Positions 15,397 through 55,092 of a DNA stretch of 64,000 nucleotides are shown piece by piece. Position 1 is the stretch's first letter. Each line of letters opens with the position of its first letter. Under the pieces are notes generated by a model. That model searched no databases. It was not told the origin of the DNA and saw only the letters and a list, made by a program, of their open reading frames with translations. The translations under genes and the position numbers were made by a program. The DNA comes from a virus, in the IMG/VR virus record IMGVR_UViG_3300029953_000001; one strand, given 5' to 3'.

Positions 15397-16062
15397 CTAG
15401 ATTGAATACAGCAGGCTACGCCCGGTTGTATCTGATGTATTTAGGCCCGAATCAATAAATTCTCCGTAAACCGAACCTGCCACGTCAAAGATGTCTGTGA
15501 CAAGGATGTTGCAGTTCTCCGTCACCGCCGCCGTCTCAATAGCGTAACCGGTTTGATAGCTCGACATCCAACATCCCTCAAATATCGTAGCTACGGCAAA
15601 CAGGCCGGGGTTGCCAGTATTGTTCAAGCCGCCCTCGTTAGGAATGTCAGCAGTAATAGCCTGACCTACGTTAGGGTCTTCAGAGGCAAGCTGCGAGAAG
15701 ACGATTTCCGTCTTGATGTCGAATGGCCACTTGTGATGACGGAGTGAGCGAACAGCACCAGATACCCCAGCCTTGTATCCGAGAACCTGCTGAAGGTTGG
15801 CGAGATACAGACAGGTACGGGTGATGGTCAAGCTCATAGGCTCGGTCACACCGGGCACGAGTTCGGCAACTTGGTCACCATACCCTAGACCACGGATAGT
15901 CTCGATATTCTTTGATTCCGAAATATCGAACGACGAAGTGACGCCAAGCTTCACGAACTTACCTACGTCTACAACGTCGGTGAAGATTTTAAATCGGGAT
16001 GAAATCACCGATTCCGTTTGCGCTGTCGTTCCTTGCTGGTACACATACCCACCCTGTGCCAT
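15397..16062 (-). CDS. Hypothetical virion structural protein (221 aa)
   Basis: RBS AAGGAGATAAAAAC-ATG; beta-rich composition; structural module. Ends in a TAG stop. Confidence 0.45.
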   Translation of the reverse strand: MAQGGYVYQQGTTAQTESVISSRFKIFTDVVDVGKFVKLGVTSSFDISESKNIETIRGLGYGDQVAELVPGVTEPMSLTITRTCLYLANLQQVLGYKAGVSGAVRSLRHHKWPFDIKTEIVFSQLASEDPNVGQAITADIPNEGGLNNTGNPGLFAVATIFEGCWMSSYQTGYAIETAAVTENCNILVTDIFDVAGSVYGEFIDSGLNTSDTTGRSLLYSI

Positions 16063-36683: not shown

Positions 36684-37300
36684 TTCTCCGGCACTTCAAC
36701 CGTCCGCAACCGGACGGGTTTGGGGCCGAACTCCTGTTCGACCTCTGCGTGACAAAAGTCACAAGTACCGACGTTGAAGATGGCGTCCGCCGTCTGAATC
36801 ATCGGGCCGGTAAATGTGACCTTCGGGTGTTGACACGTGTTGCTCAAGTTAGAACCACCGTTCGTAAGATAAAAACACCGGCTCGTAATCGCCGTTGACC
36901 AGCCTGTCCAGCATCATGCGACGGAACTTCCGGTGAAGGGCCTTGTTCAACTTGCGAACCTTCCGGGCACCGTTGCGGGTTGACTTGATATGACGCTTGT
37001 AGCCGTCGCAGATAGGGCAGCAGCCCTTGATGAATGTACGTTGCATTAGGTACGGCTCCTTAGGCCGCGCTAATGCATGGTTGACTCCTTCATGACTTCC
37101 TCCCTATGGGAGCTTGAACATCAGTATAACAAAACTTGAGAGTACGGCGATAGTAACACCGATGACACAGAAATCATAGGTGTCGTAGTTGAAGGTAATC
37201 CACCACGGAGCTTCTCCGCCAGCGGCTTCAACCCCCCGAACATAGCCTCGCATCCCACGGAACAACAGACAGTAGACGAGGAAAAAGAAAGCGAATCGCA

Positions 37301-37726
37301 TCATGCCCCCTTGTGAATCGCGTCATACCGAGCGCGCATTTCCTTGGTGACCGGGTAACCGTCCGGTGCCTGTGCTCCGGGCTTCTTCGCCGAAAAGGTG
37401 ACAACATCGTGGTGATGCTGCGAGACTTCCAGCCGCATCAAACGCCAGTCGAACTCCACATGCTCACGAGCCATGACCATAGCAGCATCAACGCCCTGAG
37501 CCTCATCAAAGGTGCCATGGATGCCGGTCTTCTGCCAGCACTCACCCGAAGCACTGAATCCCGGAGGGGTGCCGAAGCTGTCAAGGCTTGCCCTGAACCA
37601 CTTTTTGTCCTTACCAGTGGTGTACCGGGCTTCCAGTACGTAGATAGTGAACTCGCCGTCGCATCTCATACCCACAGTATACACACGCTGGGGACGTTTT
37701 GAACAAACTTTTACTGAGGCGTCCAC
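37301..37726 (-). CDS. Hypothetical protein (141 aa)
   Basis: Complete ORF in an operon-like array with small ORFs 36849..37046, 37104..37304 (membrane) and 37711..37920 (Zn-ribbon). Confidence 0.4.
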   Translation of the reverse strand: MDASVKVCSKRPQRVYTVGMRCDGEFTIYVLEARYTTGKDKKWFRASLDSFGTPPGFSASGECWQKTGIHGTFDEAQGVDAAMVMAREHVEFDWRLMRLEVSQHHHDVVTFSAKKPGAQAPDGYPVTKEMRARYDAIHKGA

Positions 37727-37961: not shown

Positions 37962-39896
37962 CTAATCATCATTAATTAATCCCAATTCCACAAGGAACCG
38001 GCTAGGAGCTACTCTACGTACATCAGCCCCCCGCTGTTCCATAGCATGAGCGCAAATAGTCAACTGGTCTTTAGCTCTAGTACAGGCGACGTACCATAGC
38101 CTGCGCTCTTCCTCAATTTCCTCGGGAGATTGACAGAAGAGATGAGGTAAACTCCCCTCCACTACATTAGTCACATACACCCTTTGAAACTCTAGACCTT
38201 TAGCACTATGTATTGTGCTCACTGTTACTTGCCCTTCCTTGTCATCCTCGCGTGCCCGTTCAAGTGTAATCTGGAAGACCACATCTTCGGTAGTCATCTT
38301 CTGGTCTTCAGAGAGACCGCGAACAAGTTCCTTGAAGCGTTCGATGTTCTCCAGCTTCGACTTTATCTTGTCCGGTTCCTTCTTGTACTTGTTGTCGATG
38401 TACTTGTTGTAGTCCATCGCCGAGATGATTTTGTCGAGAGCCTGAACCGGATACTCTCGGTACCTCTGGATGTTCTCCATGGCAGACACAAACAAGCTGA
38501 GCTTGTCGATGATGTTGCAGCCTTGAATCAGGTCGCCATCATATTTCTCATTCGCCGTCTTGCGGATGCGTTCAAGAGCCACATCACCAACACCACGTTT
38601 CGGTATGCTCACTGCACGAGCGAGAGCGGTGAAGTCTTTCGGGTTGGCGACAAGACGCAAGTAAGAGATAATATCGCGTACCTCTTCTGTCTGAAGTAAG
38701 CCGCGACCACCACGCACCACGTAAGGGATGCGGTAGCGAACGAGGGCGTTCTCAATGTCCATAATCTGACGAGCAGAGCGGACGAGAATCGCGTTGTCCT
38801 TGTATGCGATGTGACCCTTCTTCCGCATATTGTCCTTGTTGATTTCGGATGCGATGAGCAGGGCAATGTCGATGGGCAGAGAGGCTCGTGTTAGTTCAAC
38901 CGTTCCCTTGTTCTCCTCGTCTCCACGGAAGGTGGACATACGAAGGGGCACCGTGTCCACCATCTTCGCCTGTATGTGATTGGCGAGGTAAACAATGCGA
39001 GGAAGACTGCGGTGATTCTTAGCAATCCGGTAGAGAATGGGGGTGCGTCCTCTCCACCCCTCTGAGAACTCCTTGAGGAGATGGGGAGCCGAGCCGTTGA
39101 AGCCCATGATACTCTGAGAAATATCTCCTACCGTCATCAGGTTGGGGTTGTCGGGCGCGAGGAGCCCATTCACGACGCCCCACTGGGGAACAGATAAATC
39201 CTGAGCCTCGTCCACCAGCACAATGGTAAATGCCTTATGCAACTGAGCTAACCACACCGGGTCTTGCTCACATCGGCGATTGAAGAAACACAACATATCC
39301 GAGAAGTCGAGGTTGTTGGCCCGATGTTTTTCTTCCTCATACAGCTTCCAGATTTGTAAGTCGAAGGGCTCCATCGCATGATAACCTGCGTGGGCGACAA
39401 GAGCCTGTTCATGCACATCATCGGTGTAGTCTACACAAAAGCCGAGGCCACGAGCGCGATGGTAGTTCACCTTCTCTAAAAATTTGTATACAAATGAGCC
39501 AAGGCTAATACCCTTTTCTTTGACGTTGACCGTACGTTCCACAATCCGGCGAATCATCTGGCTCTGGTCGTAGTCATCCAGCGGCGTCACTCGCTCCTGT
39601 AAACCAAAACCAGCAGGGTTCTTACGAATCGCGGAGAGAGCAATGGAGTGGATGGTGGATACCTTAGGGGTGAAAAGTGAGTCAGGGGATATGTCCAACC
39701 GCTCTAAAAGCTCACCCGCCGCTTTATTGGTGAAGGTCACGCAACAAATTCGTCTAGGTTCCACCCCCTGAGCGATAAGCCACTTCACACGCTCTGTTAG
39801 TACACGGGTCTTCCCGGAACCCGCACCGGCGATGAGACAGGCAGGAGCACCTAGCGGGTGTTCAACCGCTGCCATCTGTTCTTCATTGAGTTGCAT
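37962..39896 (-). CDS. UvrD/PcrA/Rep-family SF1 DNA helicase
   Basis: Walker A AGAGSGKTRVLTERV, motif Ia CCVTFTNKAAGEL, DEAQD, and downstream helicase motifs. 644 aa. Confidence 0.8.
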   Translation of the reverse strand: MQLNEEQMAAVEHPLGAPACLIAGAGSGKTRVLTERVKWLIAQGVEPRRICCVTFTNKAAGELLERLDISPDSLFTPKVSTIHSIALSAIRKNPAGFGLQERVTPLDDYDQSQMIRRIVERTVNVKEKGISLGSFVYKFLEKVNYHRARGLGFCVDYTDDVHEQALVAHAGYHAMEPFDLQIWKLYEEEKHRANNLDFSDMLCFFNRRCEQDPVWLAQLHKAFTIVLVDEAQDLSVPQWGVVNGLLAPDNPNLMTVGDISQSIMGFNGSAPHLLKEFSEGWRGRTPILYRIAKNHRSLPRIVYLANHIQAKMVDTVPLRMSTFRGDEENKGTVELTRASLPIDIALLIASEINKDNMRKKGHIAYKDNAILVRSARQIMDIENALVRYRIPYVVRGGRGLLQTEEVRDIISYLRLVANPKDFTALARAVSIPKRGVGDVALERIRKTANEKYDGDLIQGCNIIDKLSLFVSAMENIQRYREYPVQALDKIISAMDYNKYIDNKYKKEPDKIKSKLENIERFKELVRGLSEDQKMTTEDVVFQITLERAREDDKEGQVTVSTIHSAKGLEFQRVYVTNVVEGSLPHLFCQSPEEIEEERRLWYVACTRAKDQLTICAHAMEQRGADVRRVAPSRFLVELGLINDD

Positions 39897-46352: not shown

Positions 46353-46483
46353 GTTAAGGATGTTCTGTGTCCGGTACACTGTGTAAAACCGGGTTGTAGC
46401 TTTCTTATAGTTTCTCATGAACCTATCAACCTCTCAGATGCTGAGGAGCTAACCTCTACTAAAGAGGTTGATAGTCACGAAAG

Positions 46484-46564
46484 AGCTACGAGAGGGATTC
46501 GAACCCCCGGTGTTTGTATGCCGCATTACAAGTGCGGTGCATTCGACCACTCAGCCATCGTAGC
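46484..46564 (-). tRNA. tRNA, anticodon arm CCGCA-CUUGUAA-UGCGG (UGU, Thr-like); atypical 81 nt with extra ACAAACA insert before the T-arm
   Basis: Perfect acceptor GCTACGA/TCGTAGC. T-arm GGGGG-TTCGAAT-CCCTC. No encoded CCA. Confidence 0.45.
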
Positions 46565-46570
46565 ATACCT

Positions 46571-46840
46571 TTACATTTTTACAAAAGAGAGTACCGGTAC
46601 ATCTGGGTAGCTCTCCCTGACTTCTTTATTCCAAACCTCGTGCCTTGCATGACATTCTGAACAGTAGAACGCTCCCGCATCGAAGGAGTGGTCTTGATAA
46701 TCACTCGACCAACCCCCTGTGCCGGGAGGGCACCAGAACTCAGCCGAGTTTTCACATCTCCCCTTGTAGTTCTCAATGTCCGTGGATACAAACCCCACAG
46801 ACTCCGGTACGCCCATGCATTGAATCTTCAAATCGGTCAT
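46571..46840 (-). CDS. Hypothetical Cys-containing protein (89 aa)
   Basis: Complete ORF. Confidence 0.35.
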   Translation of the reverse strand: MTDLKIQCMGVPESVGFVSTDIENYKGRCENSAEFWCPPGTGGWSSDYQDHSFDAGAFYCSECHARHEVWNKEVRESYPDVPVLSFVKM

Positions 46841-46848
46841 GTATCCTC

Positions 46849-47156
46849 TTACTTATACTTCGGGAAGAATCCAAAGTTCTTGGGGTACTCTTCTCTCGGT
46901 ATGAAAACGATTGCAACTTCTTGTCCGTTCAACGTGGACTCGGTGATGACTTGATGCTTCGGCACTTCCTTCGCCTTCTCGAACTCCTCGTCGGTTACCT
47001 TGCACACAACCTTGGCGAAGGACGTTTGCAGCCACTTGACCATATCCGGGTCGGTGGGGAAGTTCAGGTAGAGCGACAGAGGCCCGTGTGCTGCGGCCAC
47101 GATGGCGTTACCTACCGGGATGGAGCCCTTCACCAAAACGTACATCTTCAATTTCA
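46849..47156 (-). CDS. PTH2-like peptidyl-tRNA hydrolase candidate (about 102 aa; true start at the internal Met, MKLKMYVLV...)
   Basis: The listed ORF 46849..47448 runs through two tRNA genes, so the start was re-assigned to ATG at 47154-47156 (GAGG 9 nt upstream). KMYVLVKGSIPVGNAIVAAAHG and KVVCKVTDEEFEKAKE...VAIVFIP follow the PTH2 pattern. Confidence 0.4.
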
Positions 47157-47246
47157 TGCTGGCCTCGTGTATGAGTCCGATAGGGCTCATTGGACTCATA
47201 TATGAAGCACTAAAGCCGTTAGTGCTCCATATATGGGACTTTATCT

Positions 47247-47319
47247 TGGTGGGCACTTCGGGAGTTGAACCCGAATCACCGTTTCCCTTGGCAGGGTGCC
47301 ACGGTGAACCAATGTGCCC
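47247..47319 (-). tRNA. tRNA-like gene with encoded CCA, good acceptor and T-arm but no canonical anticodon arm (pseudo-tRNA?)
   Basis: GGGCACA...TCGGG-TTCAACT-CCCGA-AGTGCCC-A-CCA. No 5-bp/7-nt anticodon stem-loop in the middle region. Confidence 0.3.
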
Positions 47320-47325
47320 GAATCT

Positions 47326-47412
47326 TGGTTGGGGAGGCAGGATTCGAACCTGCAATGAGCTTACGCTCGGGGGCTTCAAAGGCCCTTGACCTACCATTGG
47401 TACGACTCCCCA
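47326..47412 (-). tRNA. tRNA, 87 nt with encoded CCA and a long variable arm (GAGC-GTAA-GCTC); U1:A72 Gln-like acceptor; anticodon read as UUG (alternative parse UGA)
   Basis: TGGGGAG ... AGGGC-CUUUGAA-GCCCC ... GCAGG-TTCGAAT-CCTGC-CTCCCCA-A-CCA. Confidence 0.5.
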
Positions 47413-47417
47413 ATAAC

Positions 47418-47651
47418 TTATGCTGTGACCAAATCCTTCGGAGGCCACTCAAACTTCCAGTTGCTCCGCTCACGAATCTTGTTATCGCGAATGTTGTAGA
47501 ACCCGGCGTACGCTGCACACGTGATAGAGCAGAACACAGGATGACTCAGGTCGTCCGGCATCTCAACCATCTGAGGCCCACGTGGGGTGTCAGGGTCTTC
47601 GTGATGACGCCGATAATCTGCACAACCGGGTGCTGGACACGCAATCAACAT
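47418..47651 (-). CDS. Small Cys/His protein (77 aa), same frame as and 3 nt downstream of the RNA ligase TGA
   Basis: CPAPGC...H...C..TC. ATG at 47649-47651. Confidence 0.35.
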   Translation of the reverse strand: MLIACPAPGCADYRRHHEDPDTPRGPQMVEMPDDLSHPVFCSITCAAYAGFYNIRDNKIRERSNWKFEWPPKDLVTA

Positions 47652-47654
47652 AGC

Positions 47655-48254
47655 TCACTCCCAGTACAGCCTATAGTTCGTTCCGTATACTTCGTTCAAC
47701 TTCTTGAAGAAGGCATCGGTCTTTATCTTGACCATGAAATCGTCACCCTTGGCGACGACGCCTTCCCACACTGGATACTTTCCGCTGCGGACATCATCAA
47801 CGAACTGCTTGTTGAGGTTGCCCTCGTAAACCACTTCAGCCGCGTATGGCAGGTCTCCGTACTGCTTGAGAAACTGCCGGGGCGACATCATCCCCTTCTT
47901 GAACAGGTACACATCGAACAAGCGAAGCTGCTTAGGCTCCCCCGGCGTATGCACACCCGCGAAACTTGAGTCCCCGAAGAACTCTGTGAAGACCGTGGTC
48001 CTCTGGCAGTTCCGGTCGTAGTCCTTCACCCGGCGAGTCAACTCATCTGCCATGGTATCCATGAAGACCGGAATCGCTTCACCGAAGACCGGGTTGCTCT
48101 TGTCGAACAACTCATGTCGGGTACCAAACTTGAACCAACCCTTCTTGGGGTTCCACTCCCAACGAAGGTTCGAGCCATCGTACTTGTAGAAAGCGATGCA
48201 CTGCTTACCTAGAGGGGCTTTGGAACTTCCTTCGATACTTGGGTACTGCTCCAT
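47655..48254 (-). CDS. RNA ligase-like nucleotidyltransferase (Rnl family)
   Basis: Motif I KYDGSN (adenylylation Lys), FTEFFG, DVYLF, motif V EGVVAKGDD, then KIKTD. 199 aa (NTase domain only). Confidence 0.55.
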   Translation of the reverse strand: MEQYPSIEGSSKAPLGKQCIAFYKYDGSNLRWEWNPKKGWFKFGTRHELFDKSNPVFGEAIPVFMDTMADELTRRVKDYDRNCQRTTVFTEFFGDSSFAGVHTPGEPKQLRLFDVYLFKKGMMSPRQFLKQYGDLPYAAEVVYEGNLNKQFVDDVRSGKYPVWEGVVAKGDDFMVKIKTDAFFKKLNEVYGTNYRLYWE

Positions 48255-48522
48255 ACATCCCTTTCAATTTCTCCAATACCACTTCCATAATCAGGGAGTG
48301 GTTTATGAAATGCCTTCAATGTGATACCGACACGAGTAATCCAAAGTTCTGCTCCAACAAGTGACCATATTGATGGAAATTACATGAACAACCATCGTAA
48401 TAACTTGCGGTGCAACTGCCCAAACTGCGATATACAACTACCTACGTCAAAAGGGGAAGAACCGAGGCAACGGTAGGCATTGGCGTCGAGTTCGTTATGC
48501 GGAGGGTAAGTCCCGCTAAAAA

Positions 48523-48598
48523 TGGAGCCGGTTGAGGGACTCGAACCCTCTGCCTTTTGCTTACCAAGCAAATACACATCCATATATGCTTAACCGGC
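48523..48598 (-). tRNA. tRNA-Thr (anticodon GGU), CCA encoded
   Basis: GCCGGTT...TTTGC-UUGGUAA-GCAAA...GAGGG-TTCGAGT-CCCTC-AACCGGC-T-CCA. Confidence 0.6.
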
Positions 48599-48604
48599 CT
48601 TTCT

Positions 48605-48808
48605 TTACTTACAACAGCGACTAATCTGCTTATCAAGTTCCTGTGCAGTCTCGTGCGCTTTTTCAAAAAACTCATCAACATCTTCGGAGTAGGTGACTCC
48701 GTGAAGCAGAGCACGTCGCCGCTTGTCCTCTGCTACGTTGTGGCGAAGGTTCTCCAGCATCTGCTGAGCGATTGCTGCTGCGGCCTCATCCAAGTTTTCC
48801 ATACTCAC
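48605..48808 (-). CDS. Small hypothetical protein (67 aa) between tRNA genes
   Basis: Complete ORF. Confidence 0.3.
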   Translation of the reverse strand: MSMENLDEAAAAIAQQMLENLRHNVAEDKRRRALLHGVTYSEDVDEFFEKAHETAQELDKQISRCCK

Positions 48809-48823
48809 CTAATACTGCGAAAC

Positions 48824-48906
48824 TGGAGCTAGGTGAGGGACTCGAACCCTCGGTGTTTGTATACCGCTTTACGAAAGCGGTGCCGTCGCCACTGAGCCAA
48901 CCTAGC
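48824..48906 (-). tRNA. tRNA with CCA; anticodon arm CCGCU-UUCGUAA-AGCGG (CGU, Thr-like); atypical ACAAACA insert like the 46484 gene
   Basis: Acceptor GCTAGGT/ACCTAGC. T-arm GAGGG-TTCGAGT-CCCTC. Confidence 0.45.
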
Positions 48907-49423
48907 CTAATGTAAATTCTTCGTCATGGGTTTCAAGATGGCAGTTGGCACAGAGGAGGTCGCACTTATCCAACTCCTTCATCAACCGAGCCCAAGCCCA
49001 CGTCATCTTCCCTGCGATGCTAAACTCCTTTTGTTCTGGGTCTCTATGGTGGAAACTTAGAACCCGCATTGACTTACAATATCCGCACGATTGGCACTTA
49101 CCCCCTTTGTATTCAACACAACGTCTCTTTACCCGAGTCCGTTGCCTATTAGCAACACAAGAGTTGCATAAAGTCAGGGTGTGACCCTGCTTCTTGGCGA
49201 ACACATACACCCTAAAACAACGGGTACAGATTAGTGAAGCACCTTCACGCTTTACACTTACAACGACAAGACTTCCATCGTCATCCCGGCGTAAAGACCG
49301 AGTGTTGTGTGCCCCGAACGGGGAGCAGACTAAGCAATACTTTCGACGTTGGAGGTTCCGTTCAACCCCGTCGATAACCACCGTGAGTGGTATGTCTGAG
49401 CTACAAAGTGTACAAGTTCTCAT
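48902..49423 (-). CDS. HNH homing endonuclease (173 aa)
   Basis: C-terminal SFHHRDPEQK....DLLCANCH, plus Cys clusters. Confidence 0.65.
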   Translation of the reverse strand: MRTCTLCSSDIPLTVVIDGVERNLQRRKYCLVCSPFGAHNTRSLRRDDDGSLVVVSVKREGASLICTRCFRVYVFAKKQGHTLTLCNSCVANRQRTRVKRRCVEYKGGKCQSCGYCKSMRVLSFHHRDPEQKEFSIAGKMTWAWARLMKELDKCDLLCANCHLETHDEEFTLG

Positions 49424-49556
49424 GTATCAGAACTCTATAGCTCAATTTTTATACTTACTTTTACTCTAACCCACTAAGCTGGTTGGCGAGGGGAATTTTG
49501 AAATCCCAACCTCATTCTTATCAGGAATGCGCTCTTCCTTTGAGCTACTCGCCATT

Positions 49557-49633
49557 TGGTGTACCCGGAGGGACTCGAACCCCCGTAATGCTCAGTAATC
49601 GGCTGAGTGCCATAGCCACTAGGCGACGGGTAC
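49557..49633 (-). tRNA. tRNA with CCA; anticodon arm CTCAG-CCGAUUA-CTGAG (GAU, Ile-like; unusual C33)
   Basis: Acceptor GTACCCG/CGGGTAC. T-arm GGGGG-TTCGAGT-CCCTC. Confidence 0.5.
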
Positions 49634-52228: not shown

Positions 52229-52302
52229 TGGTGCTCCCGGCAGGGTTCGAACCCGCGTCTCTTAGGTTAGAGCTAAGGGCACAGCCGCTATACCACGGGA
52301 GC
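52229..52302 (-). tRNA. tRNA with anticodon CUA (reads UAG amber), compact 74 nt with encoded CCA
   Basis: GCTCCCG-TG-GTAT-AGCGGCT-GTGC-C-CTTAG-CUCUAAC-CTAAG-AGAC-GCGGG-TTCGAAC-CCTGC-CGGGAGC-A-CCA. Perfect 7-bp acceptor, perfect 5-bp anticodon stem, U33 and A37 in place. Confidence 0.5.
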
Positions 52303-53162: not shown

Positions 53163-53429
53163 TCATAACTGCCTCCATTCAACTACCGGGATACGGTCGA
53201 TGTGTTGCGTGCCCATCGACTCGTCCCAGTAGAAGGTTCCATCTTCTTCGTCTGGATTCGTGGTAACCATCCAGTAGTTCGGCGGGTCGTACTCACTGTG
53301 AAAGCTGTACTCAGCCTTACAGATTCGTCCGTCCGCGAGTTTGACTTCCAATACTTCAAAGCCGTAGGTCTCTTGGTAGATGTAGCCGATGACCGGGGCT
53401 TCGCTGATAGAGTTCCATTCACTCTTCAT
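53163..53429 (-). CDS. Hypothetical protein (88 aa)
   Basis: Complete ORF. Confidence 0.35.
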   Translation of the reverse strand: MKSEWNSISEAPVIGYIYQETYGFEVLEVKLADGRICKAEYSFHSEYDPPNYWMVTTNPDEEDGTFYWDESMGTQHIDRIPVVEWRQL

Positions 53430-53877
53430 ACTTCGCCTTCAGACGCTCGTACTCGTTACGGTCATGCTCTTCCCTCGCCGCTACAGCACGGGCAGCTTCT
53501 GCTTCCTTCCTAAGCTTCTCAGCAGCAGCCGCAGCCGCCTTGGCTTCCGCTTCGGTGCGGTTGGCGATGGTCTTAGCCTCATCCAGAATTGCCTGAGCAT
53601 GTTCCTGAACTGACTCGTCCCAGTACCCGCCTTCCTTGCCGTCCTGTTCGACCCAAACCCCAGCGGGTTCCTTACCGTCAATGAGAAGGGTGATGTCGTA
53701 GTCGGCTTCACGGGACTCATGCTTCTCGTTGGCCTTGTGCTTGTCTACGATAAACTGGACAGCCTCGCCCCGGTCATCGGTGCAAAGCATGTCGAATTCG
53801 GATGAGTAGGAAGCCATAAAGCATCCACGGCAGTAGTCGGTGTTGCTCGGCTTGTAAGCGATAATCGTGTAGTTCAT
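53419..53877 (-). CDS. Hypothetical protein (152 aa) with Ala-rich coiled-coil tail ending EYERLKAKYEE
   Basis: C-terminal tail shared with the next gene. Confidence 0.4.
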   Translation of the reverse strand: MNYTIIAYKPSNTDYCRGCFMASYSSEFDMLCTDDRGEAVQFIVDKHKANEKHESREADYDITLLIDGKEPAGVWVEQDGKEGGYWDESVQEHAQAILDEAKTIANRTEAEAKAAAAAAEKLRKEAEAARAVAAREEHDRNEYERLKAKYEE

Positions 53878-54302
53878 TTTTGGTCTCCTTCAAACTTCGC
53901 CTTCAGTTCCTCGTACTTGTCGCGTTCCCACTGAGCCTGACGTTCGGTCTCAGCAGCTTCCTCAGCCATCCGTGCAGCACGACGCTGACGCTGGGCCTCA
54001 GCACGTTCCTCCTGCTTCTCGCGGATGAACTCGTCTAAGTTGTCGATACGGTCGAGCGGGATGTCGATGGAGACGTAGTAATACTCTCCACCACCGACGT
54101 ACTGAGAGCCACTGAGACGGATGCCCGTCTTGGTCATCTCAAACCCGGTGTACTCGTAATCCTTGGCCGGGTTGAAGCCCTCCCTGCGGGTGTTGTCATC
54201 GTGGATGACGTGTGCATCCTGAAGCTTCAAGAACATCGCCTTGGCTACGTGGTAGCACTGGTTGTCGATTGCCTCATGCTGTTGGAAAAGTGACTTGCTC
54301 AT
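53874..54302 (-). CDS. Hypothetical protein (142 aa) with coiled-coil tail ending YEELKAKFEGDQK
   Basis: Paralogous C-terminus to 53419..53877. Confidence 0.4.
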   Translation of the reverse strand: MSKSLFQQHEAIDNQCYHVAKAMFLKLQDAHVIHDDNTRREGFNPAKDYEYTGFEMTKTGIRLSGSQYVGGGEYYYVSIDIPLDRIDNLDEFIREKQEERAEAQRQRRAARMAEEAAETERQAQWERDKYEELKAKFEGDQK

Positions 54303-54637
54303 ATGCCCTCGCCTTCTGTGTTGGTCTGAAACGGGTAGGTTGCGTCCGTGCCCATGAGAGCACCATTAGCGTCTTCGCAGGAGACCCACTTCGCCCACGT
54401 GGATGGGAGACTGTAGTCCTCAGGATTAGCGTCGGGGTAGCGTTTGAGGAGCTTGGCAATTGCCTCGTTCCGCACAACCACCTTAGACGGGCGGTTGCCT
54501 TCGTGAGACCATACCTTGTAGCCCCACGAGTAGTAGATGGGCAGGTTGCAGTGCATACAAGCGAGGTTAGGCTGCGACATCGGAGACCTCCAGAGTTTCC
54601 TGAGGCGTCCAAAGGCGGTAGACTCCCATGGCTCCAC
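54299..54637 (-). CDS. Hypothetical protein (112 aa)
   Basis: Complete ORF overlapping the upstream gene end. Confidence 0.35.
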   Translation of the reverse strand: MEPWESTAFGRLRKLWRSPMSQPNLACMHCNLPIYYSWGYKVWSHEGNRPSKVVVRNEAIAKLLKRYPDANPEDYSLPSTWAKWVSCEDANGALMGTDATYPFQTNTEGEGI

Positions 54638-54920
54638 GAAGCTTCTTATTGGTAATGGGGTACGTCGCGACTGCGGTCAGGCCGAGGTCGAAGTCAGGCT
54701 CATAGAAAGCCTCACATTCAATGCCATAACGCTGGAGTCGTGCGATGACGGCTTCAAGAGCGTCCTTGTCAGGAACTCCGATGAGCACGAGCGAAGGGGT
54801 TTCGCTGCACCCGTCAAGCCGGGATGCCATCTCGTAGGTGGCGTGGTTAGACTGAACAATAGTTTGGGCAAGGCTGAGGTCCTGCCGGACGAAGAGGTAG
54901 TAGTGATTGACCTAGTGCAT
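54567..54920 (-). CDS. PTH2-like peptidyl-tRNA hydrolase; conserved N-terminus is reachable only by reading through an in-frame TAG at codon 3 (plus-strand cta at 54912..54914)
   Basis: RBS TAGGAGAATACAT then ATG(54918-54920)-CAC-TAG. Then VNHYYLFVRQDLSLAQTIVQSNHATYE (PTH2 VR.DL...AQ..HA motif), then MASRLDGC...SLVLIGVPDKDALEAVIARLQRYGIECEAFYEPDFDLGLTAVATYPI. No other start codon lies between the TAG and the conserved block. Confidence 0.5.
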
Positions 54921-55092
54921 ATGTATTCTCCTAATTGGTTATTGTAGCGTGAAACTTCTATTTATGCAACCAAATTCTTTGCATCTTCTATGACCTTGTA
55001 CCGTGATTCCGACCCAATGCTCACAGACCACGGGGCTGTCTCTGCCGGTGTGATGCTGCGGCTCGAAAAGGAGGTTCCCGAGCGATGTAATA

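Follow-up and report, generated by a model that had tools for sequence, protein, structure and literature searches.

Introduction

How can a gene be expressed when its third codon is a stop codon? The question is raised by a gene at 54567..54920 on the minus strand of the virus record IMGVR_UViG_3300029953_000001 (IMG/VR), of which a stretch of 64,000 nucleotides was analysed; this whole stretch is referred to here as the window. The genes of the window include a tail sheath and a Dda-like helicase, so the window is phage DNA. The gene in question encodes a domain with the predicted fold of peptidyl-tRNA hydrolase 2 (PTH2), preceded in frame by a start codon, one histidine codon and an amber codon. 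A preliminary description of the stretch proposed that the amber codon is read through with the help of a nearby tRNA with anticodon CUA. The comparison with related loci described here points the same way, and it is likely, judging from the sequences, that the gene is subject to gene-specific programmed amber suppression by the phage's own tRNA(CUA). The arrangement of a short leader, an in-frame TAG and a PTH2-like domain is called the amber gate in what follows, and homologues that begin with an ordinary Met are called ungated.

The reading frame around the amber codon

A ribosome-binding site ahead of ATG-CAC-TAG had been reported on the minus strand, and translation of the locus bears this out: a Shine-Dalgarno (SD) core is separated from the ATG by a spacer of 7 nt (Table 1). 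Across the amber codon the gene reads MH*VNHYYLFVRQDLSLAQTIVQSNHATYEMASRLDGC..., where the asterisk is the TAG, and the open reading frame (ORF) that follows the TAG begins VNHYYLFVRQDLSLAQTIVQSNHATYEMASRLDG.... The PTH2-like domain is in the same frame as the leader ATG, and a +1 frameshift of the prfB type is not involved. It was also correctly noted that no ATG, GTG or TTG lies between the TAG and the conserved block. The first such codon, at position 28 of the post-TAG ORF, encodes the M of MASRLDG. The TAG stands within conserved coding sequence, and no alternative start is available to bypass it.

What would be lost if translation began at codon 28? The protein was modelled with the compact α/β fold of PTH2. 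In the model, strand β1 (residues 3-9, HYYLFVR) comes immediately after the TAG, and helix α1 covers residues 14-30. The residues R9, D11, Q20, H23 and E71 are invariant in the family, and all but E71 lie between the TAG and Met28, within the β1/α1 segment. Since β1, α1 and these four residues precede Met28, a product initiated there would be without the core of the fold. The conserved N-terminal block therefore belongs to the fold and is out of reach of the canonical starts. A usable start downstream of the TAG, which had been named as an observation that would speak against read-through, is contradicted by the position of Met28 after β1/α1.

The layout itself is unusual. In 897 kb of related loci, an SD followed by ATG, one to three codons, a stop and an ORF of at least 90 codons was found 36 times with TAG, 10 times with TGA and twice with TAA, and most of the 36 TAG instances are the PTH2-like gene. 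The occurrence of this layout is far beyond chance expectation.

Conservation of the amber gate

Is the TAG an accident of one genome? The gated layout is present in 46 of 66 related loci, which amount to about 40 distinct gated sequences, and the other 20 loci are ungated. The 46 gated loci form 30, 15 and 12 clusters at 90%, 70% and 60% identity, and protein identity among them falls to about 35-40%. The layout is carried by the cultured phages Arash, ME3, RsoM2USA, fHe-Yen9-04, BF (Serratia), CBB (Pectobacterium) and GAP32 (Cronobacter), and the relative L050 has the identical ATG CAC TAG. The same TAG recurs in over 40 assemblies made independently of one another, some of them finished genomes of cultured phages, and this contradicts the sequencing error that the preliminary description had considered. 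A scan of IMG/VR gave 50 loci, and an in-frame walk back from the domain met a TAG directly upstream of it in about 40.

The stop is TAG in all 46 gated loci and TAA or TGA in none. This speaks against a plain stop of an upstream ORF, which would drift to TAA or TGA. The leader consists of ATG plus one codon in 28 loci, plus two codons in 9 and plus 3-11 codons in 9. Of the 40 distinct gated sequences, 36 have an SD-like core upstream of the leader ATG, at a distance of 5-11 nt (mode 7). In 29 of these 40 there is no ATG, GTG or TTG between the TAG and the invariant Arg, and three have no canonical start anywhere in the post-TAG ORF.

The base that follows the TAG (+4) is also constrained. It is A in 27 of the gated loci, G in 17 and C in 2, and it is never T, while at 133 genuine TAG stops from the same loci it is T in 35, G in 33, C in 33 and A in 32. 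A purine follows 44 of 46 gated TAGs compared with 65 of 133 (49%) genuine TAG stops (Fisher p = 1.6e-9). By the classical context rule a 3' purine favours amber suppression, and the +4 bias agrees with this rule. The preference for purines and the lack of T suggest that selection has favoured a context in which termination is leaky. Within this phage-specific PTH2-like family the gate is ancient and under selection.

The protein family

The claim that the frame encodes the PTH2 core holds for the family and for the fold, but a direct Pfam match of the window copy to PTH2 was not obtained. A Pfam search with the window protein gave neither PTH2 nor any other match, even at E up to 10, and the protein stays below the curated PF01981 (PTH2) threshold. 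It does match three PHROGs, of which one is annotated 'hydrolase' and one spans residues 5-104; PHROG 34073, a short family, matches residues 38-98. A family profile built from 22 diverse members recovers 1157 proteins and matches solved Pth2 chains at E values of 7.9e-4, 0.15 and 0.56. PF01981 is matched at E <=0.01 by 49 of 121 family members, with a best value of 1.1e-5. The assignment of the window copy to PTH2 thus comes from the family profile and the fold and not from a direct hidden Markov model (HMM) match.

The catalytic residues of Pth2 are the Lys of a G-K motif and a conserved Asp. When the family is aligned to Pth2 by HMM, the R-x-D-L and Q-x-x-H-A motifs and the acidic/G-x-T region align, and G-K-K faces e-q-q. 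Archaeal and eukaryotic Pth2 (PF01981) have only 18% identity with the phage family and carry the Gly-Lys motif where the phage proteins have A/E-Q-Q/T, and the phage family is confined to phages. From the profile matches and the fold, the family is taken to be a divergent, phage-specific sister of Pth2, of PTH2 fold without being a member of PF01981, and its members are predicted hydrolases.

A blastn search of cultured phages with the window locus gave no match. A tblastn search gave 40 records, nearly all of them jumbo phages of Proteobacteria, and the alignments in these records begin 2-5 residues past the TAG. Only 5 loci were found in 185,579 prokaryotic species genomes, all on contigs of metagenome-assembled genomes that resemble phage. 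Do homologues exist that lack the N-terminal block? This had been raised as an objection to read-through, and it is contradicted by the ungated homologues, which start with an ordinary Met placed 9-17 residues before the invariant Arg. The 87-aa database entry P0001, found on 22 contigs, is this gene called from the internal Met, and gene calls cut short at the N-terminus account for the database entries that start inside β1 or at the internal Met. The longest of the 22 contigs measures 431,749 bp, and the window probably stems from a phage of about 0.4 Mb. Proteins that open with M-x-Q-[I/V] contain the same TAG, rendered as Gln by gene callers that allow for code 15. At the C-termini of P0021, P0024 and P0025, and in L019 and L022, the ORFs run into what looks like translated tRNA gene (…AQLVER…, …GSIPTT), so tRNA genes abut the 3' end of the gene in these gated or ungated members.

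The suppressor tRNA

The tRNA(CUA) that the preliminary description placed 2.6 kb from the TAG is identified by both ARAGORN and Rfam. It lies on the same strand as the PTH2-like gene, 2.27 kb downstream of its stop, has an encoded CCA and carries G1:C72 and A73. A cognate, structurally sound tRNA(CUA) is therefore present in the same genome as the gate. The two also occur together across the family. In the fetched flanks (up to 10 kb), 36 of 40 gated loci have a tRNA(CUA), whereas among the ungated loci the figure is 5 of 16 (Fisher p = 2.6e-5). The tRNA shares the strand of the gene in every case and usually lies 0.4-4 kb downstream. CUA is the most frequent anticodon in the related loci, with 53 of about 370 tRNAs, and manual inspection added two tRNA(CUA) copies that ARAGORN had overlooked. 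In ME3, a tRNA annotated as 'OTHER, anticodon CTA' lies 450 bp upstream of the gated gene. No tRNA(CUA) lies near the gated locus of RsoM2USA; its genome paper reports one elsewhere (PMC8504454).

In a comparison of 22 tRNA(CUA) genes of the family, 20 of the 21 pairs of the cloverleaf showed compensatory changes, and the CUA did not vary. These genes thus evolve under cloverleaf constraint. The amino acid that they carry could not be inferred from the nearest co-resident tRNAs, which are mixed and weak matches (Lys, Thr, Ile, Arg). There are at least two acceptor/discriminator classes, G1:C72/A73 and A1:U72/G73. In L006 and L009-L017, two or three clearly different tRNA(CUA) genes lie side by side (e.g. 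L010:11609-11927, L016:12464-12714), and these copies include both classes as well as others. Judging from these classes, more than one amino acid may be inserted at UAG. In L018, a tRNA(CUA)-like gene missed by ARAGORN (L018:10851-10957) contains about 30 inserted nt after the anticodon arm, which would be either a long variable arm or an intron. The gated gene 450 bp upstream of it has ATG as its post-TAG codon. L017, L028 and L040 also encode a tRNA(UUA).

The genetic code of the genome

Is TAG a sense codon throughout the genome? Code 15 raises the coding density of the window only trivially, to 0.94 from the 0.90 of code 11 (greedy ORF set), and the related loci, with code-11 densities of 0.77-0.96, likewise gain trivially under code 15. 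TAG ends 11 of the 62 ORFs of at least 100 aa in the window. Among these is 15397..16062, which had been cited as an ordinary gene still ended by TAG, and also the helicase at 37962..39896, whose PHROG alignment reaches residue 640 of 644. A scan of the coding strand of the window for TAGs that join two in-frame coding stretches returned the PTH2-like gene only. The region 37304..36849 was considered as a second read-through gene and rejected: it consists of two genes, the second with its own AAGGAG and ATG. A global code-15 phage would have genes fragmented under code 11 and would rarely use TAG as a stop, and the window shows neither. Coding density, TAG stops and the split-ORF scan all agree with the earlier view that recoding is partial rather than global, and, as far as can be read from the genome, recoding is gene-specific in an otherwise standard code.

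Other amber-gated genes

The preliminary description recommended a screen for further in-frame TAGs. In the window none was found besides that of the PTH2-like gene; in relatives, an HD-domain gene and a third small family are gated as well. The HD-domain gene (phrog_14850) lies directly downstream of the PTH2-like gene in most lineages and is absent from the window. Its product resembles the HD domain of tRNA nucleotidyltransferases. Its H...HD...H...D motifs are invariant, its profile matches the HD domain of the A. aeolicus A-adding enzyme (E 1.2e-3), and Pfam HD is found in 3 of 8 members. In L012 and L039 this gene begins ATG-x-TAG, so that the TAG is codon 3. In GAP32, CBB, BF, fHe-Yen9-04 and four IMG/VR relatives the TAG is instead at codon 47, with homology on both sides of it and in the context …ISELDTG*GDP…; the four cultured phages are Rak2-like jumbo phages. 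GenBank splits the codon-47 gene into two hypothetical coding sequences (CBB_407/CBB_408, g408/g409). A TAG in the middle of a gene is not explained by reinitiation and thus lends independent support to the decoding of UAG.

In the phages XacN1 and RAS14 the HD and PTH2-like domains are fused in an ORF of about 283 codons, which is preceded by ATG AAG TAG. The conserved N-terminus of the RAS14 fusion lies upstream of the annotated start. The XacN1 fusion may be the suppressor target that the authors of that genome could not find. The third small family (L011:9569-10030, L016:11960-12420; 70% identical to each other) is gated by ATG ACA TAG, with the PTH2-like gene on one side and the tRNA(CUA) genes on the other. 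The motif at its C-terminus, ERDK..Y..LK..F, is also found at the end of two small proteins of the window that are not gated, 53419..53877 and 53874..54302.

Alternative explanations

Could ATG-CAC-TAG be an independent upstream mini-ORF, with the domain produced by termination-reinitiation or from a non-canonical start after the TAG and with no suppressor involved? A leader with a strong SD does look like a minigene, and the post-TAG codon is ATT, a known rare start, in 11 loci and ATG in L018. The other post-TAG codons, however, include AAT, AAC, ACC, AAG, CTA, CTG, GTC, GTT and GTA, most of which cannot initiate. A mini-ORF also predicts no constraint on the identity of the stop, yet TAG is found in 46 of 46 loci, and it leaves both the co-location with tRNA(CUA) and the codon-47 TAG of the HD gene unexplained. 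We consider a mini-ORF improbable. It has even less in its favour to regard the 87-residue protein from the internal Met (MASRLDG...) as the real product and the similarity upstream of it as a relic, although P0001 is exactly this 87-aa call and PHROG 34073 is similarly short. Such a product would lose β1, α1 and four of the five family-invariant residues, and no SD precedes the internal Met. Strong purifying selection acts on the supposed relic in clusters that share about 35-40% identity, and with ungated homologues that begin well before the invariant Arg, the short families are truncated calls. This possibility is considered very unlikely.

Just as unlikely is global use of genetic code 15, in which TAG would be sense and the gene would be one of many recoded. 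Relatives with up to three distinct tRNA(CUA) genes would fit such a code, and some gene callers picked code 15 for short contigs with this gene. The high code-11 density in the window and in the related loci, the use of TAG to end 11 of the 62 long ORFs, one of them a helicase with homology as far as its TAG, and the single TAG-split ORF of the window scan do not fit. Is the gene simply decaying, or is the TAG an error of sequencing or assembly? A stop at codon 3 is normally inactivating, and annotators have left the gene unannotated or truncated; the identical feature nevertheless recurs in the independent assemblies mentioned above, from different hosts and habitats, and the downstream ORF is intact and strongly conserved, without further stops or frameshifts. 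A pseudogene or error is hardly credible. In E. coli, translation can be started at UAG by an engineered initiator tRNA(CUA), and mutants of this initiator tRNA have been the subject of a paper, so UAG might itself be the start codon, read by an initiator-like tRNA(CUA). The tRNA of the window has a paired 1:72 end (G1:C72), and its anticodon stem does not have three consecutive G:C pairs. The SD spacing fits the ATG (7 nt) and not the TAG (13 nt), and an in-frame ATG lies upstream in 46 of 46 gated loci. Initiation at UAG is given hardly any probability.

Several observations weigh against programmed suppression by tRNA(CUA), or limit what can be claimed for it. When the loci are grouped into clusters at 60% identity, tRNA(CUA) accompanies 9 of 11 gated and 3 of 9 ungated clusters (p = 0.065), and much of the signal at the level of loci is shared ancestry. 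The ungated L038, L041, L044, L064 and L066 also adjoin a tRNA(CUA), so the association is not purely about gating. A GTG or TTG occurs inside β1 in 11 of the 40 distinct gated sequences, and initiation there could give a slightly truncated product with no need for read-through. Where PTH2 has the Lys of its 'GK' motif, the phage family has Q or T, and hydrolase activity is uncertain. Of the phage's own long ORFs, the 18% that end in TAG would be read through by the suppressor as well, and back-up stops are not enriched after TAG-terminated genes (Mann-Whitney p = 0.10). With its own genes ended by TAG and without extra back-up stops, suppression would have to be partial, timed or context-dependent.

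Neighbouring genes and features

The positions of the features in the window and of gated genes in relatives are collected in Table 1. The small ORF that follows the PTH2-like gene has its ATG within the final 14 nt of that gene, and the two are possibly translationally coupled; the small ORF is partly conserved in L005 at the DNA level. ARAGORN identified eight RNA genes on the same strand of the window, the tRNA(CUA) and a transfer-messenger RNA (tmRNA) among them. The tmRNA is 1.4 kb upstream of the PTH2-like gene and on the same strand. Of 40 gated loci, 13 have a tmRNA at a distance of up to 10 kb, and the order tmRNA, PTH2-like gene, tRNA(CUA) is shared by almost every member of the clade closest to the window. 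In most close relatives (L006-L016, L050) the tmRNA is 1-5 kb upstream of the gated gene. Three tRNAs of the window are unusually long (82-87 nt), Thr-UGU at 46483-46564, Gln-UUG at 47326-47412 and Thr-CGU at 48824-48906, all on the minus strand, which suggests inserts or enlarged variable regions.

The 1.3 kb between the gated gene and the tmRNA (54940-56280) contains no convincing ORF, no Rfam match at the gathering threshold and no nucleotide conservation in relatives. A scan for promoters and terminators over 52-57 kb gave sites no more numerous than in shuffled sequence. A second Met-His-stop mini-ORF, ATG CAT TAG, is present at 37070-37078 on the minus strand, in the spacer between two small genes. 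It was rejected as a gate: just seven in-frame codons follow before a TAA, and it is probably coincidental.

Table 1. Positions of the amber-gated gene, its neighbours in the window and gated genes of related phages
Feature	Position	Strand	Remarks
Shine-Dalgarno AGGAG	54928..54932	-	7-nt spacer AATACAT to leader ATG
Two-codon leader ATG-CAC (Met-His)	54915..54920	-	ATG at 54920..54918
In-frame amber TAG (codon 3)	54912..54914	-	next base (+4) G, a purine
PTH2-fold domain ORF	54567..54911	-	114 sense codons (54911..54570) and TAA (54569..54567)
Small ORF downstream of PTH2-like gene	54299..54580	-	ATG with GGAGG upstream
tRNA with anticodon CUA (amber suppressor)	52229..52302	-	ARAGORN; Rfam tRNA, 52.1 bits
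Seven further tRNA genes (Thr x3, Gln, Ile x2, others)	46483..49633	-	ARAGORN and Rfam
Permuted (two-piece) tmRNA	56280..56680	-	tag ANSNVALPIAA; ARAGORN; Rfam RF04321, 85.1 bits
HD genes with codon-47 TAG	L021:10330-10863; L024; L027; L030; L031; L034		
HD genes with codon-47 TAG, continued	L035 (10345-10863); L037:6801-7319; L067:4506-5072		
HD and PTH2-like fusion, Xanthomonas phage XacN1	L058:155-1012		ORF364
HD and PTH2-like fusion, Stenotrophomonas phage RAS14	L060:155-1003		
Gated gene, Salmonella phage Arash			leader and domain start ATG CTG TAG AAC...
Gated gene, Yersinia phage fHe-Yen9-04			leader and domain start ATG TCT CAC TAG ATT...
Gated gene, Ralstonia phage RsoM2USA			leader and domain start ATG TTG TAG ATT...
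Gated gene, Acinetobacter phage ME3			leader and domain start ATG ACT TAG ATT...

Proposed mechanism and possible purpose

How would the gate work? Under programmed amber suppression, ribosomes would initiate at the leader ATG positioned by the SD, add one residue (His) and meet UAG at codon 3. There RF1 and the phage tRNA(CUA) would compete. If RF1 wins, only a dipeptide would be released; if the tRNA(CUA) decodes UAG, the complete PTH2-fold protein of 117 residues would be made. Synthesis of the enzyme would thus be licensed by the charged suppressor tRNA and would scale with its level relative to RF1. With the gate at the extreme 5' end, failed attempts cost no more than a di- or tripeptide, and no truncated domain is produced. 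The gate would operate within a translation island that comprises the suppressor tRNA or tRNAs, often the tmRNA and often the HD gene, which in some lineages is itself gated or fused.

Why would a phage place such an enzyme behind an amber codon? Any particular physiological rationale is tentative. Foremost is a timer or feed-forward arrangement, in which enzymes active on tRNA 3' ends would be made only when the phage tRNA set has been expressed and charged. Next comes a feedback loop, in which the hydrolase would act on the suppressor or on its read-through products. Ranked third is support for the rescue of ribosomes that have read through TAG-terminated messages. The presence of tRNA(CUA) near some ungated members, together with the HD partner or fusion and the tmRNA, points to a functional link with tRNA 3'-end chemistry and ribosome rescue. 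A bolder and rather speculative proposal is that in standard-code jumbo phages the tRNA(CUA) serves as a dedicated regulatory RNA with the main task of licensing a very small 'amber regulon' for tRNA 3'-end chemistry, made up of the PTH2-like enzyme, the HD phosphohydrolase and one or two small proteins, and that with the tmRNA these form a self-adjusting module for translation rescue or counter-defence. In its strongest form, the PTH2-like enzyme would act on the acylated or peptidyl suppressor tRNA or on read-through products, and the UAG at codon 3 would close a feedback loop that sets the level of suppression in the infected cell.

Comparison with known systems

The gate has features in common with several known systems. 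In code-15 phages (Lak, crAss-like), too, in-frame TAG codons of phage genes are proposed to be decoded by a phage tRNA(CUA), with TAG remaining a stop for the host, and recoding has been put forward there as a way to regulate expression. In those phages, however, tens to hundreds of genes are affected, typically late, structural or lysis genes with many internal TAGs, and the code-11 density collapses. Here the code is standard, TAG is a common genuine stop, and there is one gated gene in the window and up to three in relatives; the TAG is usually at codon 3-4, and the gated genes are predicted tRNA-related enzymes.

The prfB gene for RF2 also has an in-frame stop near the 5' end of a gene for a translation factor. 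Its early stop makes synthesis depend on the efficiency of stop reading, through a +1 frameshift at UGA that is sensed by its own product. In the PTH2-like gene the frame is unchanged and the proposed effector is a separate suppressor tRNA, and feedback by the product is hypothetical. The lambda bar minigenes, ORFs of two codons, provoke peptidyl-tRNA drop-off and become toxic if Pth is in short supply. They resemble the leader in having a strong SD, an ATG, one sense codon and a stop, and they share with it the theme of peptidyl-tRNA hydrolase. The bar minigenes are free-standing, with no in-frame domain after them, no restriction of the stop to UAG and no tRNA(CUA).

Suppressor tRNAs in standard-code phages have been reported before, in XacN1, RsoM2USA and Summit, where both the tRNA(CUA) and the phage are of the kind considered here. 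In-silico read-through of 18 amber stops in XacN1 gave no suppressor target (PMC5852040), the Summit genome announcement identified no target gene for its suppressor tRNA (PMC9022506), and the role of the suppressor tRNA in RsoM2USA was merely speculated on (PMC8504454). The CBB genome paper does not mention a suppressor tRNA. In contrast to the XacN1, RsoM2USA and Summit reports, the present data point to specific targets, also in RsoM2USA and probably in XacN1. The principle that phage suppressor tRNAs enable in-frame stops is already known, and studies of code-15 phages deal with recoding on a global scale. Full-text literature searches, with most subscription journals outside their coverage, turned up no account of an amber-gated PTH2-like gene. 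The gene-specific codon-3 gate on a pair of PTH2-fold and HD enzymes in standard-code jumbo phages appears to be new.

Significance

The amber gate supplies a specific, conserved and tractable probable target for the suppressor tRNAs of many standard-code jumbo phages, and at least seven cultured phages would allow a direct test of programmed suppression of the gate. In a systematic way, the gated genes are truncated, split or left out by current annotation pipelines. CBB_406 to CBB_408 and the 51-aa gp84c of Arash are examples of misannotation, and in fHe-Yen9-04, BF and RsoM2USA the locus is unannotated. The pair of leader TAG and tRNA could serve synthetic biology as a natural orthogonal gate.

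For the biology of these phages, one island unites four elements of translation quality control, a suppressor tRNA, a predicted PTH2-fold hydrolase, a predicted HD phosphohydrolase and a tmRNA, and this points to an unexplored manipulation or protection of the tRNA pool by the phage. If the proposed suppression is true, gene-specific read-through of a stop codon would act as a switch that stands between ordinary decoding and wholesale code-15 recoding, and this intermediate state could illuminate how code-15 recoding begins.

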